A stretch of 24,000 bases of DNA from Myxococcales bacterium (GCA_043747615.1 JAYTOU010000070.1:1-24000); one strand, 5' to 3'; shown: positions 1-16,160, counted from the stretch's first letter. Notes: generated by a model not told the origin, from the sequence alone. Translations and numbers: made by a program.

Positions 1-21
1 TTCAATTCCCGTTGGGGTCAC
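1..21 (+). repeat. Left copy of a 21-bp direct repeat (candidate att core, within the tRNA 3' end)
   Basis: ttcaattcccgttggggtcac is identical to 11438-11458. The match could extend left of the window. Confidence 0.7.
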
Positions 22-23
22 CA
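1..23 (+). tRNA. 3' end of a tRNA gene; the 5' part and anticodon lie outside the window, so the isotype is undetermined
   Basis: 1-23 parse as TTCAATT (T-loop), CCCGT (T-stem 3' strand), TGGGGTC (acceptor 3' strand), A (discriminator), CCA. Segment lengths match a canonical tRNA 3' half. Confidence 0.55.
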
Positions 24-28
24 TTTCT

Positions 29-60
29 ACTCGGAAAAAGAAGCGGTTTCGTGAGTTTTT
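29..60 (+). terminator. Possible intrinsic terminator after the tRNA
   Basis: Imperfect hairpin ACTCGGAAA (29-37) / TTTCGTGAGT (47-56), with one wobble and one bulge, running into a T5 tract (56-60). Judged by eye only. Confidence 0.3.
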
Positions 61-63
61 GAC

Positions 64-701
64 TCAGCTCACCGCCTGGTGTCCCAAAGATGTCCCAACG
101 GGCGCATCAAGGGCTGCCATGAACTCCCGTCCGCCACCGGGCGAGAGGTGCGAATAGCGCATCTTCATCTGGATCGTGGAGTGGCCTAGCCATTCCTGAA
201 CCTGACGGAGAGGCGCCCCCGACATCACGAGCTGACTGGCGAACGAGTGCCGGCAGTCGTGCCATCGGATCTTGCGTAGCCCTGCCCTGCGGCATGCGCC
301 CCAGAGCCTTTCGTGCAGCTGGTAGATGCTGAGGGGCTTCCCGTCCGGGTTGCAGAAGACGCGAGGGCCTCTCAGGTGCTTCAGCTCCTTTAACGCCCGT
401 TCTAGCTCGGGGGTCGTTGGAACCTTTCGATCCTTGCCGCTCTTCGTGGGCCCTACGATGCCCAGCGACGACGAACGGCGAATGATGACCTTCTTGTTAG
501 TGAAATCGAGATCGCCCCACTCAGGGCGATCTGCTCCCCTGCCCTGGCGCCCGTCCGGAACGCGAAGAGCAAGAGCGCTCGTTCCTCGATGTTGCGCGCC
601 GCACTGATCGCCAAGGCCGACTCTTCGCTGTTGAAGAAGTCCGTCTTGGAGTCCGGGGAGTGGGAGATCCTCACGGCGGTGCCGGCCTTTCCGAAACTGA
701 A
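64..701 (-). pseudogene. Tyrosine recombinase (phage-type integrase), N-terminally truncated and frameshifted
   Basis: One minus frame reads EWGDLDFTNKKVII...RWHDCRHSFASQLVMSGAPLRQVQEWLGHSTIQMKMRYSHLSPGG...HQAVS, with stop at 64-66. It carries the HxxR box and the catalytic Tyr context. The upstream part (DFFNSEESALAISAARNIEERALLLFAFRTGARAGEQIAL, with the Arg-I motif) is in another frame, switching near 520-527. Homology stops near 690-705, where MFS coding begins, so the N-terminal core-binding domain is absent. Confidence 0.8.
78..98 (+). repeat. Two direct TGTCCCAA motifs 11 bp apart (candidate recombinase arm-type sites)
   Basis: TGTCCCAA at 80-87 and 91-98, inside the integrase 3' coding end and about 60 bp from the att core. 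Confidence 0.35.
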
Positions 702-2180
702 GGTGCCGAGCAAGAGTTTCACCTCGCCGCGCGCGCCGCCATCCTGTCGTTCATCGTCGTGTTCGGCGTCACCAAAGCGCTCACGAACTACCTCGCGGGC
801 CGGCTCTCGGATGCGTATGGGCGCAAGGTAATCTTGGTCGGCGGCTGGCTCGTGGCGTGCCCGGTGCCGTTTCTCCTCATGTGGGCGCCCTCGTGGAGCT
901 GGGTACTCTTCGCGAACGTGCTGCTCGGCATGAGCCAAGGGCTCACGTGGTCCACGACGGTCATCATGAAGATCGACCTCGCGGGGCCGCAGAAGCGCGG
1001 GCTTGCGATGGGCCTGAACGAGTTCGCCGGTTACTTCGCCGTGGCGATGTCCGCGCTCGCGACCGGGACCATTGCCTCGACGTTCGGCCTTCGCCCGCAG
1101 CCGTTCTATTTGGGCGTCGTCTTCGTCACGTTCGGTCTCTTGCTGTCCCTCGTCCTCGTGCGCGAGACGAAGCACCACGTCCACCACGAGGCGAAGCTCG
1201 AAGGAGCCTTGCCACCAGGCGGCGTGCCTTCGCAGCGGCAAGTTTTCGCGCTTACCTCGGTGCGCGACAAGAACCTGTCGAGCGTGAGCCAGGCAGGGCT
1301 CGTCAACAACCTGAACGACGGCATGGCGTGGGGACTTTTCCCGATCTTCTTCGCCGCCTCCGGCATGAGCCTCGCTCAGATCGGGTGGCTCGCCGCGATC
1401 TATCCCGGCGTGTGGGGAATGGGGCAGCTCTTCACTGGAGCGCTCTCCGACAAGATCGGACGCAAGTGGCTCATCGTGACGGGGATGTGGGTACAGGCGA
1501 TCGGCATCGTCGTGACGGTGCTCTCCAAGATGTTCTTGGACTTCGCCGTGGGCGGTGTGCTCCTCGGCCTGGGGACCGCGATGGTGTACCCGACGCTGCT
1601 CGCCGCGATTGGCGATGTCGCTCACCCAACGTGGCGCGCGTCGACGGTCGGCGTGTACCGGCTCTGGCGCGATCTCGGTTACGCGATCGGCGCTCTGCTC
1701 GCCGGTGTCGTCGCCGATGCGCTCGGGCTCCGCGCCGCGATCTGGGCCATCGCTGCGCTCACCTTCGGCTCGGGACTCGTGGCGGCCTTCCGTATGAAAG
1801 AGACGTTGGGGGCACGGCGGACGGGCGCGAAGCTCGTGCCCGAGCCAGCTTGTATCACGGTGGATGATCTGGACTCGCTCATGGGGAAGCGTGAGGCTGT
1901 GTTCGTCGTCGACGTGCGCTCCCCCGAGGAGTTTGCCGCCGCCCATGTGTCGAGCGCGACGAACATCCCGCTGCAGACGCTCGAAGCGAATGCAGGCACT
2001 CTCCCGCTCGACGCGCTCGTGGTCACGGTTTGCGGCAAGGGTGGCGGGCGGTCCGAGAGCGCCGCCAAGTTGCTCCGCCAACGCGGTTTTCAAACAGCGC
2101 TATCGCTATGCGGCGGGACGAACGCCTGGATGACGGCGCATAGCGAGAAAACGACTGGTCTTCTAACGACGCCACCATGA
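660..2180 (+). CDS. MFS transporter fused to a C-terminal rhodanese domain; appears to lack the first transmembrane helix (5'-truncated)
   Basis: Motif A ([10 protein letters not shown]) follows the first visible TM helix, so that helix is TM2; I count 11 TM segments. The C-terminal ~120 aa are rhodanese-like with the active loop CGKGGGR. Recognisable MFS sequence begins around 705 ([16 protein letters not shown]). The GTG at 660 is only the first in-frame start, and it overlaps integrase remnant sequence. Confidence 0.75.
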
Positions 2181-3192
2181 TCTACCTCGACTACAACGCC
2201 ACGACGCCGCTGCTCCCCGAGGTCATCGCCGCGATGGATCCGTATTTGCGCGAGCATTTCGGCAATCCATCGAGCAGTCATGTCTACGGACAGCGGGCGC
2301 GCGGGGCGATCGATGTCGCGCGGTCTCAAGTCGCGGAGCTCCTCGGCTGCGAGCCCGACGAGGTGATCTTCACGTCGGGCGGGACCGAAGCTAACAACCT
2401 CGCGATTCGCGGGGTCGCCGAAGCGAGCGAAGGGAAGCGCCACATCGTCACCTCGACCATCGAGCACCCGGCGACGGCGGCCCCGTGATCGTGCACGCGA
2501 ACAACGAGACCGGGACGATGCAGCCCATCGCCGAGCTCGCCGGTATCGCACGCGAGCGTGGCTGTCTGGTCCACACGGATGCCGCGCAGTCGGTTGGCAA
2601 GGTGCGGACGAAGGTGCGCGAGCTTGGCGTAGACCTGCTCTCCGTCGCCGGGCACAAACTCTACGCGCCGAAGGGTGTCGGTGCGCTGTACGTACGCAGG
2701 GGAACCCCGCTGCGACCGTTCGTTCTTGGAGCCGGGCACGAGCGCGGTCTGCGGCCGGGCACCGAGAACGTGGCTTCGATCGTCGCTCTTGGAGTCGCCT
2801 GCGAGCTTGCCGGGAAGCGTCTCTCCGTATCGGGCGACGCCGTACGCGCTCTCCGCGATCGACTCTGGGCTCGCCTCCTTGCAGTCGTCCCTGGGCTCGC
2901 GTTGAACGGGCACGAGACCGAGCGACTGCCGAACACGTTGAATGTGCGTTTTCCCGGAGTGACCGGGAGCGCGGTGCTCGGCTCGGCGCCCGAGGTTGCC
3001 GCTTCGACGGGCTCGGCGTGCCACGAGGGCGGTCGCGAGAGGGCTTCGTCGGTGTTGCTCGAGATGGGGCTGCGGCCTGATGAAGCCCTCGGATCCGTCC
3101 GTCTCTCTTTGGGGGTGGCGACGACGACGCAGGACGTGGACGACGCTGCCGACGTGCTCACGCGGGGATGGCGAGCATTGGGATCATCCTAA
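2177..3192 (+). pseudogene. NifS/IscS-family cysteine desulfurase or selenocysteine lyase, disrupted by an internal deletion plus frameshift
   Basis: ORF 2177-2488 (YLDYNATTP...[13 protein letters not shown]...TSTIEHPA) and ORF 2485-3192 (VHANNETGT...SVAGHKLYAPKG with the PLP Lys...STGSACHEG with the active Cys) are in different frames. Compared with E. coli IscS recalled from memory, roughly 40 residues between EH(K/P)A and HxNNE are missing, at about 2470-2490. The ATG at 2177 overlaps the MFS stop (ATGA). Confidence 0.75.
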
Positions 3193-3223
3193 TGCGATGA
3201 GTGGACGGCACGTGGATCGTCGC

Positions 3224-4480
3224 TCACTTGCGCAGCGCGCACGTACGAAAGCCGGCCAAGACGTCCCGACGATCCGGTGGGTAGAAGTTGCGCCAGGTAT
3301 TCCGGAGCAGCCGCGCGCGCGTCGCCCAACAACCGCCGCGCAGCACCTTGTGGGGCGTCGCGAACCACGGCTCCGAGTACTCCCGGTAAGGATCGACGAT
3401 GAAGCCCTGATAAGGTCCGAAATCAGTCGCCGTCCACTCCCACGTGTTGCCGATCATCTGTCGGCAGCCGAACGCGCTGTCTCCGGCGGCAAACGCGCCG
3501 ACGTCCACGGGCCCACCGCAGCGGCCATCCAGGTTCGCGTTCGCTTCGGACGGCACGGCCTCACCCCACGGGAAAGGGCGCTTTTCGTCCGTCGACGCAG
3601 CGAGCTCCCACTCCGCCTCCGTCGGCAGTCGGCGCTGTGCCCAACGACAATAGGCTTCCGCCTCGAACCAACACACGTGCACGATCGGCTGGTGCGGCGG
3701 CAGCGGCTCGCGCTTGTCGTAACGGCGCACGTCGAAACCGCCGTCGCCGAGCGGACGCCAGTACACGGGATGGTGTGCGCCGTTTCGCGTGCGCCAGTTC
3801 CACCCGGCATCCGTCCACAGCTCACGCCGAGCGTAGCCCCGTGCCTGGACAAACTTCAGGAACTCCTCGTTGGTGACGGCCGCGCGCGCGATTCGAAACG
3901 TCGGTACGTCGACCGGATGCGCCCACTTCTCGTTGTCGAATACGAACGATTCGCGAGGGGTCGCACCGAGCTGGTACCGGCAACCCCGCACCTCGACGTC
4001 GCCCGGAAGCGCCCCTCCGGCGACGGCGAGCGTAGTGACACCCGCGTGCACGAATGTCGGTGCCGGGTAGGCGAGGGTCTGGCGCGTGTATGTCAAGGCC
4101 TCGTCGTGCATGTCCTCGTGGAACAGCGCGAGTCGATGAAAATAGGGATCTTCAACGTCTCGGTCCGTCTCGCAGCATCGTTCGAAGACCTCGGCCATGT
4201 ACGCGAGGGTGGCCTGACGATCTGGAAGCGTCAGGTCCCAGCGCGTGTCGTGCGGGACGCGAGCGGAGTCGTAGAGCGCGTCCCCATCCGAGCGGATCGG
4301 CGACACACCGCGCGCATGCCGCAGCGCCCATTGTTCTTGGAACCAGGCAACGTGCCCGAGCTCCCAGCGGAGCGGATTGACGATCGCCAGACGGGGCCCG
4401 AGCCATTGCTCGTCGGTGAGGTCGAGCGCCAGGCCAAGCGTCCGCGCCCGCGAGTCCTTCAGGTCATCGATAATTCCCAT
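3224..4480 (-). CDS. senA: EgtB-like sulfoxide/selenoxide synthase (DinB-like plus FGE-sulfatase-type domains); candidate selenoneine synthase SenA
   Basis: N-terminal DinB-like part carries the three-His iron site (WELGHVAWFQE; FHEDMHDE). The C-terminal part is FGE-sulfatase-like (GNTWEWT, RGGCWAT). The SenA call rests on context with SenB-like and SelD genes. I prefer the ATG at 4480 (MGIIDDL) over the GTG at 4507, which would leave 5 bp to the senB start. Confidence 0.75.
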   Translation of the reverse strand: MGIIDDLKDSRARTLGLALDLTDEQWLGPRLAIVNPLRWELGHVAWFQEQWALRHARGVSPIRSDGDALYDSARVPHDTRWDLTLPDRQATLAYMAEVFERCCETDRDVEDPYFHRLALFHEDMHDEALTYTRQTLAYPAPTFVHAGVTTLAVAGGALPGDVEVRGCRYQLGATPRESFVFDNEKWAHPVDVPTFRIARAAVTNEEFLKFVQARGYARRELWTDAGWNWRTRNGAHHPVYWRPLGDGGFDVRRYDKREPLPPHQPIVHVCWFEAEAYCRWAQRRLPTEAEWELAASTDEKRPFPWGEAVPSEANANLDGRCGGPVDVGAFAAGDSAFGCRQMIGNTWEWTATDFGPYQGFIVDPYREYSEPWFATPHKVLRGGCWATRARLLRNTWRNFYPPDRRDVLAGFRTCALRK

Positions 4481-4512
4481 GCGACGCTCTCGCAATCTAC
4501 ACTCCACCGCGC

Positions 4513-5514
4513 ATGAATGTCGTCTTCGTATGCAAGGCCCCGCGGGGCTCGCGCCTGGGGAACCGCATCACCGCGCTTCGCTGGAAGAAGCTGGTGGAGG
4601 AGCTCGGACACCGCGTGGTGATCACCTCGTCCCTCCCCCGCGGCCCGTACGACGTCCTCGTCGCACTGCATGCCCGTCTCGCGGCGGGCGCCGTCGCGTG
4701 GTCGCGCGCGAACCACGCCTCGCGCCCCATCGTCGTCGCCTTGACCGGAACGGACCTCTATCGCGACATTCACCACGACGCCGAGGCGAAGGAATCGCTC
4801 GCGCTCGCGGATCGTCTCATCGTCTTGCACGAGCTTGCGCCTCTCGACGTCCCAAGGCCCTTCCGAAGCAAGACGCGCGTCATTCGTCAATCGGCGCCGC
4901 CCGCGCCACGCCAAACGTCTGGCGGCGCAAAAGAGCGCGACGCCTTCGAGGTCGCATTCGTCGCCCACCTGCGCGCCGAGAAGGATCCCATGCGCGTTGC
5001 CGCCGCCGTTCGCTTGCTGCCGGCGGCGTCGCGCGTGCGCGTTCGGCATGTCGGCCGCGCGCTCAGCGAAGAACTGGACCGGCAGGCAACGAAGGAGACG
5101 AAAACGAACGCGCGGTACGCTTGGCTCGGCGAGGTCTCCCCGGCGCGCGCCCGCCACCTGATCGCGCGGTCGCACGTGCTCGTCCTCACGAGCATCATGG
5201 AGGGCGGGGCGAACGTCCTCGGCGAGGCAATCGTCGCCGGAACACCGCCGATCACGTCGCGCATCCCCGCCGCCGTCGCGGCGCTCGGCGCGAAGTACCC
5301 TGGTTTTTTCCCGGTTGGCGACACGCGAGCGCTCGCGCGCATGCTGTCGCGCGCGGAACGCGAACCTGCGTTCCTCGCCGAGCTACGGCGGCAGACCCGC
5401 GCCCGCCGCCATCTCTTCACGGCGAAGGCGGAGAGAAGCGCATGGCGTTCGCTGCTCGAAGAGCTCGCGCCGCCCGCTCGGGCGCGACGCGGCGAACCTC
5501 ACCCGATAGGATGA
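4513..5514 (+). CDS. senB: GT-B-type glycosyltransferase; candidate selenosugar synthase SenB
   Basis: 333 aa with a C-terminal GT4-like nucleotide-sugar binding stretch (LTSIMEGGANVLGEAIVAGTPPITSRIP). It is divergent from and adjacent to the EgtB-like gene, with SelD nearby. Assignment is by context and fold-level resemblance; no search was run. Confidence 0.65.
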   Translation: MNVVFVCKAPRGSRLGNRITALRWKKLVEELGHRVVITSSLPRGPYDVLVALHARLAAGAVAWSRANHASRPIVVALTGTDLYRDIHHDAEAKESLALADRLIVLHELAPLDVPRPFRSKTRVIRQSAPPAPRQTSGGAKERDAFEVAFVAHLRAEKDPMRVAAAVRLLPAASRVRVRHVGRALSEELDRQATKETKTNARYAWLGEVSPARARHLIARSHVLVLTSIMEGGANVLGEAIVAGTPPITSRIPAAVAALGAKYPGFFPVGDTRALARMLSRAEREPAFLAELRRQTRARRHLFTAKAERSAWRSLLEELAPPARARRGEPHPIG

Positions 5515-5518
5515 TGAG

Positions 5519-6898
5519 ATGAGCAAGCACTACGACGCAATCGTCATCGGCACAGGTCAGGCAGGTCCGTCGCTCGCCGTACGTCTGGCAAGCGCGGGAC
5601 GAAAGACCGCGATCCTCGAGCGAAAGCGGTTCGGCGGCACATGCGTCAACGTCGGGTGCATCCCCAGCAAGACCTTGATCGCCAGCGCGCGCACCGCTCA
5701 TGTCGCCAGGCGCGCCGCGGACTACGGCGTGATCGTCGAAGGCGGGGTCACTGTCGACATGAAACGCGTGAAGGCGCGCAAGGACGCTGTGGTCCAGCGG
5801 TCGAACGAGGGCGTCACGCGCTGGCTCCGGAATACGGCGAACCTCACGGTGATCGAGGGGCACGGCCGATTCGAAGGCCCCCACGTCATCCGCGTGAACG
5901 ACGACGTCCTCGAGGCCCCTCAGGTCTTCATCAACGTCGGTGCGCGCCCGATGGTGCCCGACCTTCCGGGGCTCGACGGGGTGCCGTTTCTCACGAGCTC
6001 CTCGATCATGGATGTCGACTTCGTCCCCGAGCATCTGATCATCATCGGAGGCAGCTACATCGGCCTCGAGTTTGCTCAGATGTATCGCCGCTTCGGCAGT
6101 CGAGTGACGGTGATCGAGAAGGGACCGCGGATCGCGGCGCGCGAGGACGAGGACGTTTCAACCGAGATCAAGAGTATTCTCGAGGCCGAAGAGATCGCGT
6201 TCAAGTTGAACGCGCAGTGCTTGAAGTTCGGCCGGCGCGGAGACGGGGTGGTCGTGTCGGTGAGCTGCGACGGAACGCTCGACGAGATCGCGGGCTCGCA
6301 TCTCCTCGTAGCCGTTGGGCGGGTGCCAAACACCGCCGACCTTGGGCTCGACGCCGCGGACGTCGCCGTGGATGCGCACGGCTTCGTCGTCGTCGACGAC
6401 GAGCTCCGCACGAGCGTCCCCGGGGTATGGGCCCTCGGAGACGCGAACGGTCGCGGCGCGTTCACGCACACGTCTTACAACGACTATGAGATCGTCGCCG
6501 CGAACTTGCTCGATGGTGGCTCACGCCGCGTGAGTGATCGCATCCCGGCCTACGCGCTCTTCGTCGACCCGCCGCTCGGCCGCGCAGGGCTGACCGAGCG
6601 CGACGTGCGCGCCTCCGGCCAGAAAGCGCTGATCGGGAAGATGATGATGGCGCGCGTCGGTCGGGCGCAGGAGCGCGGCGAGACTCTGGGCTTCATGAAA
6701 GTGATCGTCGACGCAGAGAGCCGCAAGATCCTGGGCGCGTCCCTACTCGGGATCGAAGCGGACGAGGTCATCCACGCGCTCCTCGACGTGATGTACGCTG
6801 GCGGCACCTGCGACCTCATCACGCGGGCAATGCACATCCATCCGACGGTCTCGGAGCTGATCCCGACCCTACTCGGCGATCTGAAGCCGCTGGAGTGA
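5519..6898 (+). CDS. Class I FAD-dependent pyridine nucleotide-disulfide oxidoreductase (mercuric/glutathione/lipoamide reductase-like)
   Basis: GTGQAG dinucleotide-binding motif, redox-active GGTCVNVGCIPSK, second Rossmann motif IIGGSYIGLEFA, and C-terminal HPTVSE His-Glu dyad. It has no C-terminal Cys pair and no N-terminal metal-binding domain, so it is not a bona fide MerA. It starts 4 nt after the senB stop, with AGGA 7 nt upstream. Confidence 0.85.
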   Translation: MSKHYDAIVIGTGQAGPSLAVRLASAGRKTAILERKRFGGTCVNVGCIPSKTLIASARTAHVARRAADYGVIVEGGVTVDMKRVKARKDAVVQRSNEGVTRWLRNTANLTVIEGHGRFEGPHVIRVNDDVLEAPQVFINVGARPMVPDLPGLDGVPFLTSSSIMDVDFVPEHLIIIGGSYIGLEFAQMYRRFGSRVTVIEKGPRIAAREDEDVSTEIKSILEAEEIAFKLNAQCLKFGRRGDGVVVSVSCDGTLDEIAGSHLLVAVGRVPNTADLGLDAADVAVDAHGFVVVDDELRTSVPGVWALGDANGRGAFTHTSYNDYEIVAANLLDGGSRRVSDRIPAYALFVDPPLGRAGLTERDVRASGQKALIGKMMMARVGRAQERGETLGFMKVIVDAESRKILGASLLGIEADEVIHALLDVMYAGGTCDLITRAMHIHPTVSELIPTLLGDLKPLE

Positions 6899-6906
6899 TC
6901 GAAATT

Positions 6907-7950
6907 TCAGCGATCGACCACGTGGATGTGGCCGACGCGCCCGGCGGCGAGCGTTCCGATGATCGCCGCGCAGGGTGTTCCGCGGGAGCGCAGCTCGCCA
7001 ATGAGCTTGTCCGCCTCGTCGGGCGAGACGGCGATCAGCAAACCGCCTGAAGTCTGAGCATCGCTGAGGACGAGCTGCGACTCCTTGTCGATCCCGGTCG
7101 CGTACTCGACCGAGTCGCTCAGGAAGCGCCAGTTTGCGTGGGTGCCCCCCGGCGCGATCCCTTCGCGGACATAGGTCCAGGCCGCGTCGATCACGGGCAC
7201 GTCCTCGAGGCGCACGGTCGCGCTGCATCCGCTCGCCCTGACGATGTTGCGCAGGTGGCCGAGGAGACCGAAACCGGTGATGTCGGTGCAGGCGTGCACG
7301 GACACCGTGGCCATCGCCTCTGCTGCCGCGCGGTTCAGCATGCTCATGAGACGGATCGCCTCGCCGATGGCGTGCGCAGCATCGCGATCTTGCTTTGCCG
7401 CGGTGGTCACGATTCCAATGCCGATCGGCTTCGTGAGGACGAGGACGTCACCCGGAAGACCACCGGCGTTCGAGGCGATCTTCTTGGGATGCACCATGCC
7501 GGTCACTGCGAGCCCGTAGATGGGTTCGTCGGTCTTGATCGTGTGACCACCGACGATGTCGATCCCGGCCTCCCGTGCCTTCTCCGCGCCGCCGCGCAAA
7601 ATCTCGCCGAGCACCGACACGTCGAGCTCGGATTCCGGGAAGCCGACGAGGTTGAGCGCGGCGATGGGCCAGCCGCCCATGGCGTAAACGTCGCTGAGCG
7701 CGTTCGCCGCGGCCACTGCCCCGAACTCGTACGGATCGTCCACGACGGGCGTGAAGAAATCCGTGGTCAAGACGAGAGCTCGCTCGTCATCGATGCGATA
7801 GACCGCGGCGTCATCGCCGGTCGCGCTCCCGACGAGCACGTTCGGATCGGTGACGGGCGGTAGTCTGCTGAGCAGCGGAAAGAGGTAGCCGGGCGGATGT
7901 TTTGCGGCGCAACCAGCGCGCTTGGCAATCTGCGTGAGGCGAACGGACAT
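6907..7950 (-). CDS. selD: Selenide, water dikinase (selenophosphate synthetase), Cys-type; SenC role in a sen cluster
   Basis: N-terminal glycine-rich loop AGCAAK, with the Cys encoded by TGC rather than TGA. AIR-synthase-like core (DDAAVY, DFFTP, GGHTI, TDITGFGLLGH). AGGAGA Shine-Dalgarno sequence 5-6 nt upstream of the ATG. Confidence 0.9.
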   Translation of the reverse strand: MSVRLTQIAKRAGCAAKHPPGYLFPLLSRLPPVTDPNVLVGSATGDDAAVYRIDDERALVLTTDFFTPVVDDPYEFGAVAAANALSDVYAMGGWPIAALNLVGFPESELDVSVLGEILRGGAEKAREAGIDIVGGHTIKTDEPIYGLAVTGMVHPKKIASNAGGLPGDVLVLTKPIGIGIVTTAAKQDRDAAHAIGEAIRLMSMLNRAAAEAMATVSVHACTDITGFGLLGHLRNIVRASGCSATVRLEDVPVIDAAWTYVREGIAPGGTHANWRFLSDSVEYATGIDKESQLVLSDAQTSGGLLIAVSPDEADKLIGELRSRGTPCAAIIGTLAAGRVGHIHVVDR

Positions 7951-7977
7951 CGCATTCTCCTGTGGGTGATCAGTAAG

Positions 7978-9018
7978 TCATGCCATGGACGCGAGGCCAG
8001 CAGCGGTCGCTACGAGCCAGACGCCAAGGGCCAAGGCCACGGCGACGCGAGGCCGTGACTCGCGTGCGAGGACGAAGAGAGAGGGCAGGTTCACGATCGG
8101 CCCCGCGACCACGAACGCAACGGCGACGCCGATCGGCGCGCCCGCGGCGAGCAGCAGGAGCGCGACCGGGACTTCGAAGAACGTGGGCAGAGCAACGAGC
8201 ATTCCGATGAGAGCGACCACGGTGATCGCGAAGACCGTACCTCCACGCGTGAGCATGGCGACGTGCGGAAGAAGAAGGCCTGAAACGAGCACGCCGGCGA
8301 TGATGAGCGGCACGGTCACGACGGTGAGGTACCCAACGCTCCTCGCGAAGCGGACGAGCAGGGCGCCGAGCGTCATGTCCTCGTCGGCATCGACCTCGCA
8401 CGCGACGCTGCGCGCGGGTGACACGTCTTTCTCCATGGCCCGGCCGATGCCCGCAGAGAGCCCGAGAACGATGACGAGCGCCGCCACGACGCGAACCGCA
8501 GCGACCCGCACGGGGAGGAGCGCGAAGCTCAACACGATGGCGGCGATGTTCAGGCCGGGCGACGCCAACATGACTGCGAGTGAAGGACCGAGGCGCGCAC
8601 CGCGCTCGTAGAGGCCCGTGAAGACCGGGGTGACACAGCAACAGCACAACATGAGCGGCGCGCCTGCGAGCGCCCCCATGATCGTCGGCCGCCCTCCGCG
8701 TGCCCCGAGCCAGCGCTTCACCCATGACGAGGGAACCGCCGCGCGAACCGCTGCGCCGACGAGGATCCCGAAGACGAGCGCTGGCCAGATTTTACCGAAG
8801 TAGAACAGCGTCGTTGCCACGACGCCTCCGTCAACGAGCGCCGACGTTGAAACGCCCAGCTTTCCGGACTCACGTACGCGCCCGAGCACGCGCAGCGAGC
8901 CGCCCCATTTGTAATAAAAGAGTGCCGACACGATCATCGCGAGGATGAAAGCGCCGCCGAATTGCGTGCGCGCGGAGCCTCCGGATTTGCCCGCCATTGC
9001 AGCCGAGGTCGTCGTCAT
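7978..9018 (-). CDS. Polytopic permease of the DUF318/ArsP-type predicted-permease family with a CCCC motif
   Basis: About 10 hydrophobic helices in two halves, split by an acidic loop (EVDADEDM). The motif GAPLMLCCCCVTPVF sits where family members carry a vicinal Cys pair before a Pro. It ends 27 bp upstream of the selD start on the same strand. Start is uncertain: ATG 9018, ATG 8997 or TTG 9054. Confidence 0.7.
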   Translation of the reverse strand: MTTTSAAMAGKSGGSARTQFGGAFILAMIVSALFYYKWGGSLRVLGRVRESGKLGVSTSALVDGGVVATTLFYFGKIWPALVFGILVGAAVRAAVPSSWVKRWLGARGGRPTIMGALAGAPLMLCCCCVTPVFTGLYERGARLGPSLAVMLASPGLNIAAIVLSFALLPVRVAAVRVVAALVIVLGLSAGIGRAMEKDVSPARSVACEVDADEDMTLGALLVRFARSVGYLTVVTVPLIIAGVLVSGLLLPHVAMLTRGGTVFAITVVALIGMLVALPTFFEVPVALLLLAAGAPIGVAVAFVVAGPIVNLPSLFVLARESRPRVAVALALGVWLVATAAGLASMA

Positions 9019-9103
9019 CACCGGAAGATGAGCTTGTCTCGCTTCGCGACGCAACCGCTGTCTGGCGGGCTCGCTCCGATTCGGCCGCGCTCGGGCGAGC
9101 GCG

Positions 9104-10048
9104 TTAGACCGCGCGCGACGGCTGCATCCAGGGCTTCGAAAGGTATCGGTCCCATGAGTCGGGCAATAGCGTCACGACAGGACCAGTAATGCCGTCCCGC
9201 GCTGCGATCCTGAGCGCGACAACGACCGCGGTCCCCGCCGAGCCGCCGACGAAGAGCCCCTCTTCGCGAACGAGGCGATGGACCATCGCGAAGCTATCGG
9301 TGTCAGAAACGCTTTCGGCGCTGTCGATCACGCTGCGGTCGAGGATCGCGGGTGGCTTGCTCGTGCCGATTCCTTCGACCTCATAGGCGGCGTCGGGGCC
9401 AACGATCCCATCCGCGGCCCACCGAGCGAGACCAGAGCCGACGGGGTCCGCAAGGACGATTTGGACGTTCAGTACGTGACGTTTCAGGAACCGGCCAACC
9501 CCGGTGATGGTGCCCCCCGTGCCGGCTCCAGCGACGAACGCTCCGATCCGAGCGCCCGTCTGTTCGAGGAGCTCGGGGCCCGTGGTCTCCTCGTGGGCGC
9601 GGACGTTCACGGGATTGCGGAACTGGTCGGTGAGGAACCACCCCTCTTCATCTGCGAGGCGACGGGCAACGTTCTGGAAATTCTCAGGACTATCCGGCGG
9701 CGCGTTCGGAGTGATCACGACGCGCGCGCCGAGGGCCGTAAGCGCAGCTCGTTTGTCGACGGACATTTTCTCCGGCAGTACGCAAACGAGCTTGTAGCCT
9801 CGCACGGCGGCGACGAGCGCGAGCCCCATTCCCGTGTTTCCGGCCGTCGCCTCGATCAGGGTCGCGCCGGGCTTCAGGAGATTGCGTCGTTCGGCATCGT
9901 CGACGATGGCGAGGGCGATCCGGTCTTTCACGCTTCCTCCCGGATTTAGATGCTCGCACTTCACGAGGATCGAAACCGGGAGGCCATGCCCGATGTGTCG
10001 CAGCCGCACGAGCGGCGTGTGCCCAATGTGATCGAGAATCGTCGACAT
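9104..10048 (-). CDS. PLP-dependent cysteine synthase / cystathionine beta-synthase family enzyme (CysK/CysM-like)
   Basis: IGHTPLVRL; NPGGSVKDR with the PLP Lys; GNTGMGLA; GAGTGGTITG phosphate-binding loop. It lies first on the minus strand before the permease and selD. The ATG at 10048 is preferred; the ORF extends to a TTG at 10096. Confidence 0.85.
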   Translation of the reverse strand: MSTILDHIGHTPLVRLRHIGHGLPVSILVKCEHLNPGGSVKDRIALAIVDDAERRNLLKPGATLIEATAGNTGMGLALVAAVRGYKLVCVLPEKMSVDKRAALTALGARVVITPNAPPDSPENFQNVARRLADEEGWFLTDQFRNPVNVRAHEETTGPELLEQTGARIGAFVAGAGTGGTITGVGRFLKRHVLNVQIVLADPVGSGLARWAADGIVGPDAAYEVEGIGTSKPPAILDRSVIDSAESVSDTDSFAMVHRLVREEGLFVGGSAGTAVVVALRIAARDGITGPVVTLLPDSWDRYLSKPWMQPSRAV

Positions 10049-10294
10049 TGGGCGGAGCTTAGCTTGCCGCGACGCGACTGGAGGGCTCGTCGTCAAGGAG
10101 GCGTCGCAGAAAAGCGCTATGGAGAAGGACCATCGCGACCATCCCGAAATAACGCGACGGGGTCCTCTGGAAATCCGCGTCGTTCTGTACCTGCTCGCGG
10201 TTCCTTGGGAGGGCCGTCGCGACGGCGTCGCCGTCTACCCTCGAACGTTGGAATGCCGATCCCGTTTACCGTCCCCAATGGTATGTGACGAGCA

Positions 10295-11270
10295 ATGGCG
10301 TCGCGCACGATCCGCCCGAACCTCGCGAAGCTCTCGGGCTCGGTGGCCTACCGCGCGATCCTCGGCGAGGTCAGCGCGCTGCTCGAAAGCGCACGGCGAG
10401 CGGCCGCCCGCGCGGTGAACACCGTCATGACGACCACGTACTGGGAAATCGGTCGCCGGCTCGTTGAGCACGAGCAGCGCGGGAGGGCGCGGGCCGCGTA
10501 CGGCGCTGCGCTCCTGCGCCGGCTATCGAAGGATCTGGCAGGACGCTTCGGTCGCGGATTCTCGGAGCGCAACCTCGAACAGATGCAGCGCTTCTACCTG
10601 ACGTGGCCCATTTCGCAGACGCTGTCTTCGAAATTCCAGGAAGGACCGGCACTCGCGCCGCGATCCAAGATTTCGCAGACGCTGTCTGCGAAGTCCCAAG
10701 ACCACATTGCGCCAAGCTTCCCTCTGCCGTGGTCCCACTATGTTCGCCTCCTCGCTGTCAGGAACGAGAACGCCCGGGCGTTCTACGAGTACGAGGCTCT
10801 CCGCGGTGGTTGGACGGCCCGCCAGCTCGACCGACATCTCAAAGCTCGAGACGTTCCTACTTGAGCTCGGCGGCGATTTCACCTTCGTTGGTCGCCAGCG
10901 CCGATTGCGCGTCGGAGATGAGTGGTTTCGGATCGACCTGCTTTTCTTTCACCGGCGCCTGCGATGCCTCGTGGTGATCGACCTCAAGCTGGGGAAGTTC
11001 AGCCACGCCGACGCGGGCCAGATGCACCTATACTTGAACTACGCCCGGGAGCACTGGATGGTGTCCGGCGAGAATCCTCCGGTCGGGATCATCCTCTGCG
11101 CCGAGAAGGACGAGGCGGTCGTCCGATACGCGCTCGAAGGCTTACCCAACAAGGTGCTGGCTGCGGCGTATCGGACAACGTTGCCTGCAGAAGAAGTTCT
11201 CGCCGCCCAGCTTCGAAAATCCGCGAGGCTCCTGACAACCCGGACTCCACGCCGCTCGACACCCCGCTGA
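10295..11270 (+). pseudogene. DUF1016/YhcG-type PDDEXK nuclease, split by an internal deletion and frameshift
   Basis: ORF 10295-10864 has the N-terminal domain (YWEIGRRLVEHEQ, GFSERNLEQMQRFY, WSHYVRLL). A second frame up to 11270 has the nuclease core (FLLELGGDFTFVGRQRRLRVGDEWFRIDLLFFHRRLRCLVVIDLKLGKF). The junction is near 10830-10845. Tens of residues normally between the two parts appear to be missing. Confidence 0.7.
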
Positions 11271-11287
11271 CGATGGGGCGAGTTGGG

Positions 11288-11359
11288 TGTCCCATGGGTG
11301 TCCCAAGCCTCGCGGAAACGGACGGAAACAGACGGCAGCCAACGGGAACGTTTGGGACA
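11288..11359. repeat. Cluster of TGTCCCAA-type motifs near the right island end
   Basis: TGTCCCAt at 11288-11295 and TGTCCCAA at 11299-11306, again 11 bp apart. An inverted copy TTGGGACA lies at 11352-11359, and a further inverted copy at 11822-11829 outside the island. Confidence 0.35.
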
Positions 11360-11437
11360 CGGCATCTTGCGTTAACACGGTGACTTAGGGGCCAAGACCG
11401 CGTCACTACTTGGTTATCTCAAGATGCCGATCTCAAT

Positions 11438-11458
11438 TTCAATTCCCGTTGGGGTCAC
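11438..11458 (+). repeat. Right copy of the 21-bp direct repeat (displaced tRNA 3' fragment, candidate att site)
   Basis: 21/21 identity to 1-21. The upstream bases (tcaat) cannot form the T-stem and the copy is followed by tg rather than ca, so it is not a second tRNA gene. Confidence 0.7.
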
Positions 11459-11859
11459 TGGTTTTCTCTGTATCATTCCGCGCGGATGTAACTTTTCACG
11501 GCGGATTTTGGACAGCTCGGTGGACAACCCCACCGATTCGCAGAGGTCGTCGGGGAGCGCCGGCCGGCGTCGACGGTTCCGTCCTCGATTGATCCATCGG
11601 CGAGAAGGGCATCCGTCGCGGCCGCGTCGCTGTTCGGTGATACGGCCGCGTCGTCGCCGCAGCCGGTAGCTTGCGCGTTCACGACGTGCGACGACGAATC
11701 GGGCGACGCGGGAGCCAGTATTGGCGGCTCCTCAACGACCACGTGTGCGCCGTGAACACCCAGCGAACCATTGGCGCCATTCCGCGCAGTAGAAAAGTTC
11801 CGACGATGAACTCGCCGCTAGTTGGGACAGCACGGGCACCCGCTGTTAGCGTTGCCGCC

Positions 11860-12141
11860 ATGCGAACCGTTGCCCCCATTGCGTTGGCCATCCTTGGACT
11901 GATGACGTACGGATGCAGCTCAACAAGCAGCACGCCGAAAACGCCGCCCACATGCGCGCAGCTTCAAACGCAGATCAATGCGTGTACGAATATCTCCCAG
12001 GCCGCAAAGGATTCACTAGGTCCTTTCTGCGCGACGGCATCCGACGCATGTCGGTCATGTCTTGACGGACAGCTTTGTGGAGCCACCGAGCAGTGTGACC
12101 CGCAATGCCACAAGATCGCTGATGCGGGCGGGGGTGGCTGA
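11860..12141 (+). CDS. Small cysteine-rich putative lipoprotein (hypothetical)
   Basis: MRTVAPIALAILGLMTYGC is a signal peptide with a lipobox-like Cys. The mature part has 8 further Cys (CAQLQTQINAC...CRSCLDGQLCGATEQCDPQC). An alternative ATG lies at 11806. Confidence 0.5.
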   Translation: MRTVAPIALAILGLMTYGCSSTSSTPKTPPTCAQLQTQINACTNISQAAKDSLGPFCATASDACRSCLDGQLCGATEQCDPQCHKIADAGGGG

Positions 12142-12468
12142 GACGCGCGAGGCCTTTCTCCGTCTCGCGGTCCACCTGCTTCGTGATGTGAAAGCGCCCA
12201 TGCGTGAAGTCGAGATCGCCAGCGGTTAGCGCCGCGATCTCGTTCGAGCGCGCTGCGAAGTAGACGGCCACGGCGTACACGCCGCGTCGGCGGGCGGGCA
12301 CTTCTTCGCATTCGAGAAGCTGTAGAAACTCGTCGGGGTCCAGGGGTCCAGGATGACGCGACTTCGACCGTCCCCATTGTCGGGCCCGCGCACTTTCGTT
12401 ACCGGGTTGACGGTGCGGTGAGCACGCGCAGGCGTCGCTCTTCGAGTTGCAGGCCTCGTCGAAGGCAC
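12142..12468 (-). pseudogene. Remnant of a second, unrelated tyrosine integrase (middle fragment only)
   Basis: Minus frames read NPVTKVRGPDNGDGRSRVILDP and then, in another frame, DEFLQLLECEEVPARRRGVYAVAVYFAARSNEIAALTAGDLDFTHGRFHITKQVDRETEKG (Arg-I region). The catalytic C-terminal half is missing, because homology ends where the lipoprotein gene ends. Confidence 0.6.
12336..12351. repeat. Perfect 8-bp tandem duplication (gggtccag x2) causing the frameshift in the integrase remnant
   Basis: Removing one copy joins ...RVILDP to DEFLQLLE... in a single frame. Confidence 0.8.
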
Positions 12469-12512
12469 ACGTCAGATCGCCTCAAGCGGGAGGTCATTCC
12501 CACTTTCACCAG

Positions 12513-12553
12513 GTAACGTTACTTCGGCAAATGCTTGTTCCATTATTATGGAA
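12513..12553. promoter_or_regulatory. AT-rich promoter/operator region of the ars operon with two palindromes
   Basis: Perfect 10-bp palindrome GTAACGTTAC (12513-12522) and inverted repeat TTCCAT-tatt-ATGGAA (12538-12553), 43-83 bp upstream of the arsR GTG. This is a locally AT-rich patch in a GC-rich background. No -35/-10 boxes could be assigned confidently. Confidence 0.45.
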
Positions 12554-12595
12554 TCATAGCTTGCGGAGTTGCTTCGAGGATACTAGAAGTAGGTT

Positions 12596-12904
12596 GTGAC
12601 CTCGAAGCTGGATCGCCGCGCCGAGCAGCTGAGTGCCCTGGGCCACTCCGTTCGGCTCAAGATCCTCCGATTCGTCGTGCAAGCGGGCGTCGAAGGCTCC
12701 GCAGCGGGCGACATCCAGGCTCACGTCGAGCTGCCAGCGTCCACGTTGAGTCATCACCTGAAGCGGCTGGTCGACGCCGGGGTGCTCTCCACCCGATCCG
12801 AGGGAACCTTCCACTTCTACGCCGCCGACTACACCGCCCTCCGCGCTCTCACCGACTACCTTTGGGAAGACTGCTGCAAGCGCGGCAAGTCCGGCTGCTG
12901 CTGA
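12596..12904 (+). CDS. arsR: ArsR/SmtB-family metalloregulator with C-terminal cysteine pairs
   Basis: Winged-helix signature LSALGHSVRLKILRFV...ELPASTLSHHLKRLVDAGVL. It lacks the CVC site in helix 3 and has C-terminal CC-x6-CC (EDCCKRGKSGCC). The GTG at 12596 is the first possible start after in-frame stops. Confidence 0.85.
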   Translation: MTSKLDRRAEQLSALGHSVRLKILRFVVQAGVEGSAAGDIQAHVELPASTLSHHLKRLVDAGVLSTRSEGTFHFYAADYTALRALTDYLWEDCCKRGKSGCC

Positions 12905-12920
12905 GCAAAGCCTTTTTTTT
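12893..12920 (+). terminator. Possible weak terminator/attenuator between arsR and arsM
   Basis: GGCTGCT..AGC-AA-AGCC imperfect stem overlapping the arsR stop, followed by a T8 run (12913-12920). Judged by eye only. Confidence 0.3.
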
Positions 12921-12976
12921 GCGCTTAATGTTCGAGTATTTTGGAAGTAGTTAACCCCACACACGAGGAGTCGATC

Positions 12977-13894
12977 ATGAAGAACCCTAGCGTTCAAAAA
13001 TCCGAGAAGACCTGCTGCGCCCCAAGCTGCTGCGAGGGCGACAACGCCGCGGCGAAGGCCGAGACCGCAAAGGTCGACGACGCCGTTCGTGAGACGGTCA
13101 AGGAGCGCTACGGCCAGGCGGTCGCGGCAGTCATGAAAGGCTCGAAGCCTTCGTGCTGTGGGTCGTCTGCAGCGCCGGGCATCCGCGGCACGGACCCGAT
13201 CACGCGCAACCTCTACGACGCGGAGCAGGCGGGCGGCGTGCCCGATGACGCCTTGCTCGCCTCCTTCGGCTGCGGCAACCCCACCGCCCTCGCCAATCTG
13301 AACCCCGGCGAGACCGTGCTCGACCTCGGCTCAGGGGGCGGCATCGACGTGCTTCTGTCGGCCAAGCGGGTCGGCCCCACCGGCAAGGCGTACGGGCTCG
13401 ACATGACCGACGAGATGCTCGACCTCGCCATGAAGAACAAGGCGAAGGCGGGCGCGGCGAACGTGGAGTTCTTGAAAGGACACATCGAGGCAATCCCGCT
13501 ACCGGCCGCCTCGGTGGACGTGATCATCTCCAACTGCGTCATCAACCTCTCCACCGACAAGGACAAGGTGCTCGGCGAAGCCTTCCGCGTGCTGCGCTCG
13601 GGGGGTAGGTTCGCCGTCTCCGACATCGTGGTTCGCCGCGAGCTTCCCGAACCGGTGAGGAAGTCGATGGAGCTGTGGAGCGGGTGCATCGCAGGGGCGC
13701 TTCTGGAAAAGGAGTACGTCGCCAAGTTGAAGGCCGCCGGGTTCATCGACATCGAGGTCGAGCCGACCCGCATCTATACGAAGGAGGACACCGCGGAGAT
13801 GACGTCGTCCTGCTGCGGCGAAGAGGCCGAGACGGCCCTCGAGGCCCTGGACGGCGCCGTCATGAGCGCCTTCATCCGCGCGACGAAGCCATGA
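12977..13894 (+). CDS. arsM: Arsenite S-adenosylmethionine methyltransferase
   Basis: SAM motif [12 protein letters not shown]. Conserved Cys contexts FGCGNP, SNCVINL and WSGCIAGA, plus an N-terminal Cys-rich stretch (CCAPSCC, PSCCG). GAGGAG Shine-Dalgarno sequence upstream of the ATG at 12977. Confidence 0.9.
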
Positions 13895-14907
13895 GCACGC
13901 GCACCAAGGTCGGCATCAACGGGTTCGGCCGTATGGGTCGGCTCGCGCTTCGAGCGGCATGGCGTTGGCCCGACTTCGAGTTCGTCCACATCAACGAGCT
14001 GAAGGGCGGGCCCAAAGTCGGCGCGCATCTCCTCGCGTTCGACTCGGTGCACGGTCGATGGGACCAAGAGGTCGTCACCGCGGCGGACGCCATCGCCATC
14101 GCGGGGAAGGCCATCCCCTTCACCGGATACGCCACGCCGGCAGAGGTGCCGTGGAAGGAGCACGGGGTCGAGATCGTCCTCGAGTGCTCTGGGAAGTTCA
14201 GGACCCCGGCGCTCATCGCTCCCTACTTCGCGGTCGGAGTGAAGAAGGTCATCGTCGCCGCCCCCGTCAAGGAGGGCGCGCTCAACGTCGTCGTCGGGGT
14301 GAACGATCACCTCTACGACCCGGAGAAGCACCACTTGCTCACGGCGGCTTCCTGCACGACCAACTGCCTTGCTCCCGTGGTGAAGGTCATTCACGAGGGC
14401 ATCGGCATCCGCCACGGTGTGATCACCACCATCCACGACATGACGAACACCCAGACGGTCGTTGATGCGCCCCACGAGGATCTTCGGCGAGCACGGGCCA
14501 GCAGCCTCTCCCTCATTCCGACGAGCACCGGGTCGGCGACGGCGATCTCGTTGATCTACCCCGAGCTGAAGGGAAAGTTGAACGGCCTCGCCGTGCGGGT
14601 GCCCCTCTTGAATGCGTCGCTCACCGATTGCGTCTTCGAGGTCTCTCGGCCGACGACGACGGACGAAGTGAACGCGCTCCTCAAGACTGCCGCGGAGGGG
14701 CCGCTGAAGGGCATCCTGGGCTATGAAGAGCGCCCGCTGGTTTCGGTGGACTACAAGGACGATACGCGATCGGCGATCATCGACGCCCCATCGACCATGG
14801 TGGTGGACGACACGAGCGTGAAGATCCTCGCCTGGTATGACAACGAGATCGGCTACGTGCACCGCATGATGGAGCTCGCCCGCACGGTTGCCCAGAGCCT
14901 TCGGTGA
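13891..14907 (+). CDS. Glyceraldehyde-3-phosphate dehydrogenase (ars-operon type, partner of ArsJ)
   Basis: [12 protein letters not shown]-binding motif and active site SCTTNCLAP. The start overlaps the arsM stop (ATGA). Confidence 0.9.
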
Positions 14908-16160
14908 GCTCGTTGAGCGCCATCCGCAACTACAGCCTCGTGACCGCCGCCTACTGGGCGTTCACGTTGACGGACGGCGCGCTGCGGATGCTCGTCCTCT
15001 TGCATTTCCACGAGCTGGGCTACACGCCGGTCCAGCTCGCGTTCCTGTTTCTCTTCTACGAGCTCTTCGGCGTCGTCACCAACTTGCTGGGCGGCTGGAT
15101 CGCCTCGCGGATGGGTCTGCGTGTGACTCTCCTTGGCGGGCTCGCCCTCCAGGTGGTCTCGCTCGTGCTCCTCGGCATGGTGAACCCTGCGTGGCCGAAG
15201 CTCACGTCCGTCGGCTACGTCATGAGCGCCCAGTCGCTTTCGGGCATCGCCAAGGACCTCACGAAGATGAGCGCCAAGAGCACGACCAAGCTCCTGGTAC
15301 CCGAAACCAACGAGTCGTCGCTCTTCAAATGGGTGGCAATCCTCACGGGCTCGAAGAACGCGCTCAAGGGCGTGGGATTTTTTCTTGGCGGTCTCCTGCT
15401 CACGGCATGGGGCTACCGGCACGCGCTCTTCGGGATGGCCGCGGCTCTCTTCATCGTCCTCGCCGGCTCCTTCTTTTCCCTCCCGCGCGGGCTGGGGAAG
15501 TCGAAGTCCAAGAGTAAATTTAAGGGGCTTCTGTCGAAGACGCGCGAGGTGAACATCCTCTCGGCTGCGCGGTTCTTCCTCTTCGGCGCGAGGGACATCT
15601 GGTTCGTCGTTGGCGTGCCCGTCTTCTTGTCAGAGAACCTCGGCTGGGGGTTCGCCGAGATCGGCACCTTCCTAGCTGTCTGGGTGATTGGGTATGGGGT
15701 CATCCAGTCGGGCGCCCCGCTCCTCATTGGCCGGTGGACCGGTGGCCGAGCGCCCCAAGGGCGAACCGCCCAGGTCCTCGCCTTCGTCCTCGCGGGCGTC
15801 ACAGCGATCGTCGCCGCCGGGATCGTCGCGGGCTACGCGCCGGTAGTCGTCATCCTGGTCGGCCTGGGCATCTTCGGCGCCGTCTTCGCGGTCAACTCCT
15901 CCGTCCACTCGTACTTGATCCTTGCGTACTCGGACGGAGACAAGGTGGCGACGAACGTGGGCTTCTATTACATGGCCAACGCCGGGGGCCGCCTCGTAGG
16001 GACGCTTCTGTCGGGCGTGATGTTTCAAGTTGCCGGGGTCACGGGTTGCCTATGGACCTCGGTGGCGTTCGCAGCGATGGCGGGGGTTGTCTCTCTCGGC
16101 CTGCCGAAGAAGGAGTCCTCGACGTTGATGACGGAGATGAAAACCGAGGGGGCGGATTGA
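14904..16160 (+). CDS. arsJ: MFS permease ArsJ (organoarsenical efflux; 1-arseno-3-phosphoglycerate exporter)
   Basis: ArsJ-like N-terminus ([37 protein letters not shown]) and a 12-TM MFS layout. The GTG start overlaps the gapdh stop (GTGA). Confidence 0.85.

Follow-up and report, generated by a model that had tools for sequence, protein, structure and literature searches.

The first 11,458 nucleotides (nt) of a 24,000-nt stretch of DNA from a Myxococcales bacterium (GCA_043747615.1 JAYTOU010000070.1:1-24000, the whole stretch hereafter called the window) carry a cluster of sen genes, predicted to encode the selenoneine pathway, between two exact 21-bp direct repeats, the first of which is the 3' end of tRNA-Glu(CUC). 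The region is read as a tyrosine-integrase island that entered the 3' end of this tRNA gene and carried the sen genes as cargo, a reading given a probability of about 0.72; that it is an integrase island bounded by attachment (att) sites in some form, whatever the history of its interior, is regarded as nearly certain. The host is an uncultured Polyangiaceae-like myxobacterium. The window makes up the first 24 kb of a scaffold from a metagenome (ENA ERZ28573532, BUSI22-1 scaffold_875); sequence L002 is identical to the window.

The repeat, TTCAATTCCCGTTGGGGTCAC, lies at exactly 1-21 and 11438-11458, both on the + strand, and no other copy was present in the window at up to 3 mismatches; it had no match in 100 shuffles and its chance expectation is 0. 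With up to 4 mismatches allowed, no further copy was found in a span that begins 4.5 kb left of the window and reaches window coordinate 33,643. Positions 1-23 (+) read as the T-loop (TTCAATT), T-stem (CCCGT), acceptor strand (TGGGGTC), discriminator (A) and CCA of a tRNA-Glu(CUC) 3' end, with the attL core at 1-21. No tRNA was called in the window by ARAGORN, since the source contig begins at base 1 of the repeat. In L001, a 92.8-kb contig from another sample that carries the locus mid-contig, ARAGORN called an intact 75-nt tRNA-Glu(CTC) at 4431-4505, preceded by a tRNA-Gln(CTG), and its 3' end falls exactly at window position 23. The same contig sets the repeat length at exactly 21 bp, as the adjoining bases differ between the tRNA copy (g before it, 'ca' after it) and the second copy (t before it, 'tg' after it). 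The second copy (11438-11458, +) is a displaced tRNA-Glu 3' fragment and no gene, since the bases ahead of 11438 (gatctcaat) cannot make the 5' T-stem strand ACGGG; this fragment would be the attR core of the sen island and the former tRNA end beside an older island. The flank 'CAC tgg' at attR is normal for a displaced native end, because the native tRNA-Glu genes of the lineage are mostly without an encoded CCA. A terminator scan gave nothing convincing adjoining either repeat copy. A preliminary description, made from the window alone, had noted the exact repeat, the tRNA 3' end at 1-23 and the inability of the second copy's flanks to form a tRNA; each of these points was borne out, and the complete tRNA that it proposed to seek upstream is the one in L001.

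The source scaffold starts exactly at base 1 of the repeat, which means that the assembler broke at the tRNA/repeat; strain heterogeneity, or a conserved tRNA common to several genomes in the sample, could account for this break. An origin of the repeat as an assembly artefact of this contig start was rejected, both copies being inside the single contig L001. L001 differs from the window by 1 mismatch in 16.9 kb, and L003, a third assembly, matches window positions 4103-13411 at 100% identity. With no more than 1 base different among three independent assemblies over the regions shared with the window, the frameshifts described below are taken to be real.

Just inside the first repeat copy lies a tyrosine integrase pseudogene (64-700, -; PF00589, 2.8e-22 at 64-609(-)), here called family 1. 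Its frame stop is at 64-66 (TCA on the + strand), with the 3' end toward the tRNA and a gap of 40 bp (24-63) between them, as first described. The remnant comprises the C-terminal ~195-215 residues, the N-terminal ~90-120 residues being gone by comparison with homologs of 267-313 amino acids (aa). With its frame corrected, the protein aligns to these homologs at 55-65% identity. A 1-nt frameshift stands near nt 530, and the frame-corrected alignment preserves the catalytic R/HxxR/H/Y columns (R60, H155/R158, H181, Y190). The remnant falls short of the complete integrase with a core-binding domain that is needed for activity, and the HTH_17 (excisionase-like) gene found just upstream of the integrase gene (int) in intact relatives has no counterpart upstream of the remnant. 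The preliminary description was thus right in calling the integrase broken, and the sen island is predicted to be no longer able to excise or move on its own. The Islander method (Hudson, Lau & Williams 2015, PMC4383910) identifies islands in tRNA genes (tDNA islands) by an intact tDNA, a displaced oriented fragment and an integrase inside. All of these features were tested for and are present here: an intact tRNA gene at one island end, a downstream 3' fragment in the same orientation, and an integrase in the interval.

In the textbook model of a lambda-type tyrosine integrase, attP includes accessory sites of the arm-type integrase (Int) or excisionase (Xis) kind. The motif RTGTCCCAW has 5 matches in the 24 kb against 0.38 expected, all of them beside the two repeat copies, and no more copies were found in the sequence flanking the window, 4.5 kb on its left side and 9.6 kb on its right (38 kb in all). 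An int-proximal doublet (GTGTCCCAA / ATGTCCCAA, 79-98, +, starting at 79 and 90 and thus 11 bp apart) lies in the last integrase codons and is a candidate arm-type or Xis site; the far arm (11287-11360) holds GTGTCCCAT at 11287 (+), GTGTCCCAA at 11298 (+) and a single GTGTCCCAA at 11352-11360 (-). The two doublets have equal 11-bp spacing and equal orientation, and the copies lie 58-77 bp from attL and 78-151 bp from attR. A test for shared 8-mers between the arms was not discriminating, ~5% of random segment pairs sharing at least four 8-mers in such GC-rich DNA, and the two-arm argument draws instead on how often the motif occurs, its restriction to both arms and the common spacing. These properties suggest that the repeats are putative recombination-accessory sites of a split attP. 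As in lambda-type attP, both arms have short direct repeats spaced by one helical turn (11 bp), together with one inverted copy, tens to ~150 bp from the core, the sites here being predicted from sequence alone; the family to which the window element belongs differs in having short integrases (~290-310 aa) and an int-proximal doublet inside the last int codons.

The best matches to the family-1 integrase are 55-75% identical and come from Polyangiaceae metagenome-assembled genomes (MAGs) and metagenomes. Two of them, L011 and L012, show an int with GTGGCAACAG twice, 11 bp apart, in its last codons, and ~47 bp further on a tRNA 3' end, at which both contigs end. The 14-nt core of L012 recurs 8.9 kb away and so bounds an element of ~8.9 kb, which contains an AAA ATPase, an S8 peptidase, an HTH_3-M78 gene, a DUF3368 gene, two HTH_17 genes and int. 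The cargo of both contigs is defence-like (L012 1908-10808, AAA ATPase, S8 peptidase and ImmA/IrrE-type HTH_3-M78; L011 1-10910, a DUF4062-TPR protein, a caspase (Peptidase_C14) and IS66 TnpB). In L010, the family-1 integrase P0019 has a 23-nt tRNA-Glu(CTC) fragment beside it, and a GTGCCCAC triplet lies 46 bp away from the core; the real tRNA is 6 kb off, adjoining a different, 464-aa integrase. Across L011, L012 and L010, the accessory-like doublets or triplets are 46-58 bp from the core. From these loci, the att core of family 1 is the same segment of the same tRNA; the motif sequence itself varies among related elements, as would be expected if protein and DNA specificity co-evolve. A search of IMG/VR for relatives close to the integrase gave matches of 41-42% identity at best, and hence no tie of the element to a known phage. 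The assignment of the two repeat copies as attL and attR, proposed in the preliminary description, is thus supported by the tRNA, the oriented fragment, the integrase position, the motif in both arms and the layout in relatives, and the two 21-mers behave as the att sites of a tyrosine-integrase island at the tRNA-Glu(CUC) 3' end.

The 21-mer is not a dispersed repeat. A survey of 185,579 species, one genome for each, returned 18 exact stretches in 17 genomes, 17 of the 18 being tRNA-Glu 3' ends: 16 belong to tRNA-Glu(CTC) following tRNA-Gln(CTG) in Myxococcota MAGs and one to a Patescibacteria tRNA-Glu(TTC). The remaining stretch, L020, is not part of a tRNA; an integrase follows it, and its contig also holds the tRNA (L025). 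The left flank groEL-groES-tRNA-Gln-tRNA-Glu is kept in eight of these Myxococcota genomes (groEL 71-83% aa identity), and the sequence after tRNA-Glu differs in all eight. Four loci (L022, L024, L025, L034) have an intact PF00589 integrase directly after tRNA-Glu(CTC), on the opposite strand and with its 3' end at the tRNA; in other genomes a hairpin and unrelated genes follow.

To the right of attR, where the preliminary description had assumed native chromosome, stands the remnant of another integrase (12160-12481, -), unrelated to family 1, here called family 2. It runs from the last part of the core-binding region into the beginning of the catalytic domain and encodes '...DEFLQLLECEEVPARRRGVYAVAVYFAARSNEIAALTAGDLDFTHGRFHITKQVDRETE', as seen in a translated search of 11459-12595 against the tRNA-Glu loci. 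Its best correspondence is to the L022 integrase (tblastn E 1e-17, 59% identity over 58 aa), and it also matches the integrases of L034, L025, L024, L020 (the one after the displaced fragment) and L010 (464 aa); the matched proteins are PF00589 members. In five other Myxococcota genomes, relatives of this integrase come right after tRNA-Glu(CUC). The N-terminus is cut near 12481-12510, and the C-terminal half, down to 11459, is unrecognisable. A weak match at 11527-11628 (-) (E ~0.007-0.01; family-2 residues ~83-128, out of order relative to the main remnant) is not claimed as a second fragment and may be a fragment or chance. In L010 (15846-17240; tRNA 17202-17274), L025 and L034, family-2 integrase frames run into the tRNA-Glu 3' end.

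The displaced fragment in the window therefore still borders the type of gene that adjoins the tRNA in other species, and since it is bordered by the family-2 remnant, the family-2 element would have come first and the sen island later, into the regenerated tRNA. Each member of an Islander tandem array carries an integrase and a tDNA fragment of its own (PMC4383910). By gene and fragment order the locus would be a two-member tandem array in that sense, of which the sen island would be the newer member; the reverse stacking order of the two integrase families is seen in L010.

The same observations bear on the supposition that the second 21-mer is a chance or unrelated copy, such as a decayed tRNA pseudogene from a local duplication, in ordinary chromosome. 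An absence of empty site and of a compositional break (see below) would agree with it, and against it stand the expectation of 0, the restriction of the copy to just the 3' end that integrases target, the integrase-end motif on one side with a second integrase remnant on the other, and the finding of the 21-mer outside a tRNA only once in 185,579 species, there also followed by an integrase. Agreement of three independent assemblies opposes any artefact of the motif and the integrase remnants. This explanation is strongly disfavoured and considered highly improbable.

Genes of the island were called with Pfam and NCBIfam profiles, and sen names were assigned by NCBIfam equivalog cutoffs. SenA, SenB and SelD/SenC are co-located within 3224-7950, each above the cutoff of its family model: senA, selenoneine synthase (3224-4480, -; NF041186, 488 bits, cutoff 420; Pfam DinB_2 and FGE-sulfatase), senB, selenosugar synthase (4513-5514, +; TIGR04348, 352 bits, cutoff 300), and senC/selD, selenophosphate synthetase (6907-7950, -; TIGR00476, 392 bits, cutoff 125). 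Between senB and senC is a gene for a flavin adenine dinucleotide (FAD)-dependent pyridine-nucleotide-disulfide oxidoreductase (5519-6898, +; Pfam; NF004992, 759 bits, cutoff 629), which by position would be cotranscribed with senB. An ArsP_1-type permease (7978-8997, -; Pfam) is next to senC and also adjoins the sen genes of relatives L018 and L037. No hercynine gene (egtD) was seen in the window; the selenoneine pathway is predicted from the genes of an uncultured organism.

On the left of the sen genes are a major facilitator superfamily (MFS) transporter fused to a rhodanese domain (704-2180, +; Pfam, hydropathy and alignment), which is without its first transmembrane segment (~26-43 N-terminal residues), and a NifS/IscS-type cysteine desulfurase (Aminotran_5) pseudogene (2177-3192, +) that is split in two, with profile positions ~102-145 missing; the split is identical in independent assemblies. 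On the right are a pyridoxal phosphate (PLP)-dependent cysteine synthase/cystathionine beta-synthase-like gene found by profile search (9104-10048, -) and a DUF1016/YhcG PD-(D/E)XK nuclease pseudogene (10295-11270, +), frameshifted and with a 60-bp internal tandem duplication (10610-10641 and 10670-10701, 32 nt aligned at 88% identity, in the N-terminal domain). Four of the 12 genes are pseudogenes, and senA, senB and senC are intact.

The integrase and the MFS gene are divergent, both are without their 5' ends, and they abut within ~45 bp. Firm integrase homology ends at about nt 653 (DSKTDFF) and MFS homology begins at nt 704 in alignment with homologs of 509-533 aa, so the junction between the two truncated genes is placed at 660-704 by the homology limits on both sides. 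Such an arrangement points to a deletion or other illegitimate join, and with both 5' ends lost the present 11.4 kb would be a deletion derivative of something larger; the proposal that an ~11.4 kb unit was acquired as it now stands is not upheld.

Because the sen block lies between attL on one side and the far arm with attR on the other, it was either on the element originally or inserted afterwards. An empty site would be a tRNA-Glu followed directly by the sequence right of 11458. The predicted empty-site junction ends in ACGGGTTCAATTCCCGTTGGGGTCAC and continues as TGGTTTTCTCTGTATC, and the predicted circular attP junction ends in GATCTCAATTTCAATTCCCGTTGGGGTCAC and continues as CATTTCTACTCGGAAAAAG. 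JGI metagenomes gave 0 matches to the pattern tRNA T-stem + 21-mer + TGG, and the control pattern (far arm + 21-mer) also gave 0, which indicates that the species is absent from that collection and makes this negative uninformative. GTDB representatives have the left flank in common with the window and not the right flank. When window genes were looked up by exact protein match, all returns came from the same strain and had the island (at least 3 samples), with no island-free variant among them. Four other species have tRNA-Glu directly followed by a family-2 integrase, which is the configuration predicted before arrival of the sen island.

Several observations weigh against the reading of the locus as an att-bounded island with sen as original cargo. 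The empty site was not found, and no distal att site or third tDNA fragment for the older island was detected as far as window coordinate 33,643. In L012 the int-proximal motif has no exact repeat in the far arm, so that the pattern in both arms is documented only in the window, and the two sequenced relatives of the element carry defence-like, not metabolic, cargo. Composition gave no signal: GC, GC3 (GC at third codon positions) and tetranucleotide profiles of cargo and flanks are similar, with a cargo GC3 of 0.813 against 0.798 for the right flank and 0.814 for the left flank. On its left side the sen block is bounded by a non-homologous junction, so the sen genes could have joined the integrase remnant after integration. 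Finally, the accessory genes resemble a sulfur-type cluster without sen (L038), with the sen module nested inside. The horizontal acquisition of sen claimed in the preliminary description is sustained as regards an att-bounded island; the status of sen as its cargo stays a matter of deduction, no empty site having been found and GC3 equalling that of the flanks, and the k-mer and GC3 comparison that the description proposed gave no signal that separates inside from outside.

An alternative is a small element (integrase, excisionase, yhcG and arms) that integrated without sen and had a 9.4-kb block of sen and accessory genes captured later, by illegitimate or homologous recombination replacing the element interior; the att sites would then still be real. 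The abrupt junction of truncated integrase and truncated MFS gene at nt ~660-704 speaks for it, cargo GC3 (0.81) equals that of the host flanks with the integrase remnant at 0.61 (0.613), related elements are ~9 kb with defence-type genes and no sen, and the accessory genes are like the chromosomal sulfur-type cluster with the sen module nested in it. However, the right edge of the block (the PALP-yhcG intergenic region, 10049-10294) has no insertion sequence (IS), repeat or second junction; in integrative islands, the stretch from the int module to the far att site commonly holds metabolic cargo (PMC4383910); and two events, replacement and truncation, are needed against one for an internal deletion. 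Original cargo thus requires a single later deletion, and later capture an unmarked replacement as well. Later capture is considered unlikely, and the sen genes are held to have probably been on the element at integration.

A deletion at the same junction could also have collapsed an array of two same-type elements, the left integrase deriving from one and the sen block and far arm from the other, with everything between them, including the middle att copy, removed. Tandem arrays at tRNA-Glu are directly seen in the window, in L010 and in L020/L025, and a deletion junction exists; but two elements with identical arm motifs would be needed in addition to the deletion, and the outcome is indistinguishable from that of the simpler single-element model. 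This is thought quite improbable, and it would leave sen on an integrative element and the main conclusion unchanged.

Sen genes of relatives were examined for their location. In the four nearest SenA relatives so examined (73-86% identity), the sen genes occupy four separate loci, and no tRNA, copy of the 21-mer core or integrase of either family is present at any of them. On the 25-kb plasmid pMPOP01 of Methylorubrum populi BJ001 (L122, NC_010727.1, 4532-6769), senB-senA lie between IS256-like and IS6-like transposase genes, with no selD listed adjacent. This patchy location of sen fits mobility. The L038 locus (534-7794), which is without sen, encodes an ArsR-rhodanese regulator, a metallo-beta-lactamase, an MFS-rhodanese protein, DsrE, a methyltransferase, Pyr_redox_2, Aminotran_5 and PALP; from gene content, the accessory genes of the window look like a reduced copy of such a cluster, with the sen module placed between the desulfurase and PALP genes.

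For an island that brought sen as cargo, the following course of events is proposed. An older family-2 element would have occupied the tRNA-Glu(CUC) gene first. The sen island would then have entered by site-specific recombination of its tyrosine integrase into the tRNA 3' end, over the segment from the T-loop to the first C of CCA. Its attP would have carried a copy of the tRNA 3' end, so that integration regenerated the tRNA (attL, 1-21), now with an element-supplied CCA, and displaced the original 3' fragment to the island's other end (attR, 11438-11458). The RTGTCCCAW repeats most likely bind the integrase or its excisionase. A deletion after integration would have removed the 5' end of the integrase gene and the beginning of the MFS gene, along with whatever excisionase or regulatory genes there were, and further frameshifts or deletions presumably struck the integrase, cysteine desulfurase and yhcG genes. 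The order of these events is deduced from the arrangement of the remnants.

Myxophage Mx8 integrates at a tRNA gene and has its attP inside int; it is a complete phage and uses another tRNA than the one here. The window locus is like that of Mx8 in its myxobacterial host, its tRNA 3'-end target and an integrase frame in or next to the core, and the family-2 reading frames that run into the tRNA (L010, L025, L034) recall the attP-in-int arrangement; it differs in that no phage structural genes were seen. Compared with the T-loop/T-stem attP class of Islander tDNA islands (PMC4383910), the window is alike in its regenerated tRNA, downstream 3' fragment in the same orientation, integrase by the tDNA, core running from the T-loop to the 3' end and second integrase after the fragment. 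It differs in that both integrases are pseudogenes, the newer island is without the int 5' end and any xis, and the older island is without a detectable distal fragment. Mechanistically, nothing departs from the standard tRNA-island model; the island type is well known, and what is new is the cargo, the sen cluster, and the host.

With the known sen cluster (bioRxiv 10.1101/2022.04.13.486033; later PMC10891094, PMC11237966) the window shares senA, senB and selD above cutoffs and the adjacent permease, and senB is divergent from senA as it is in relatives. It differs from that cluster in the FAD disulfide oxidoreductase gene between senB and senC, in being an att-bounded island, and in the nesting of sen among the MFS-rhodanese gene, the desulfurase pseudogene and the cysteine-synthase-like gene. 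The founding preprint (bioRxiv 10.1101/2022.04.13.486033) makes no mention of islands, of mobile elements or of horizontal transfer. The sen pathway is a recent discovery with a patchy distribution, and a sen cluster bracketed by att sites is one concrete route by which it may spread among myxobacteria; the IS-flanked copy on the Methylorubrum plasmid is a second possible route. The finding also marks tRNA-Glu(CUC) as a Myxococcota integration hotspot, of use in predicting islands and in engineering these bacteria, which are hard to manipulate.

Directly past the older integrase remnant, 12596-16160 holds arsR (start 12596), the arsenite methyltransferase gene arsM (NF008823), gapdh and an MFS gene, the last two forming an arsJ-type arsenate-resistance pair, so that selenium and arsenic genes are adjacent at one tRNA hotspot. 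Right-flank proteins (ars, aldo-keto reductases and kinases) were not found downstream of tRNA-Glu in 17 other genomes, over the 0.2-7.8 kb covered. Just past the window end, at window coordinates ~23867-24625 (L119 11724-12482), a gene with a Phage_lysozyme2 domain comes after two hybrid histidine kinases and may again hint at mobile DNA on the right side.

A wider picture that joins these loci is speculative and, taken as a whole, doubtful. In it, tRNA-Glu(CUC) would be a Polyangiales landing pad for two unrelated integrase families that stack in either order, and family 1 would constitute undescribed integrative elements of ~9-11 kb with accessory doublets in the last int codons, ferrying defence or metabolic cargo, here the complete selenoneine pathway. 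The arsR-arsM-gapdh-arsJ genes would be cargo of the older island, giving an accreted selenium/arsenic island, and with att cores and arm motifs intact a related integrase might excise the sen island in trans.

The 21-mer also occurs in IMG/VR contigs. In L005 it lies outside a tRNA at 159-179(-) with GGGGGACAG-type repeats on either side, and in L006 the 3' half of a tRNA-Glu at ~520-565 is followed by an opposite-strand integrase; these copies look like att sites of other elements using the same tRNA. Two very large viral contigs, L004 and L007 (393-407 kb), have dense tRNA arrays (35 tRNA genes in 7.7 kb at L004 1-7688), and one of these 35, a tRNA-Glu, ends in the same 21-mer.

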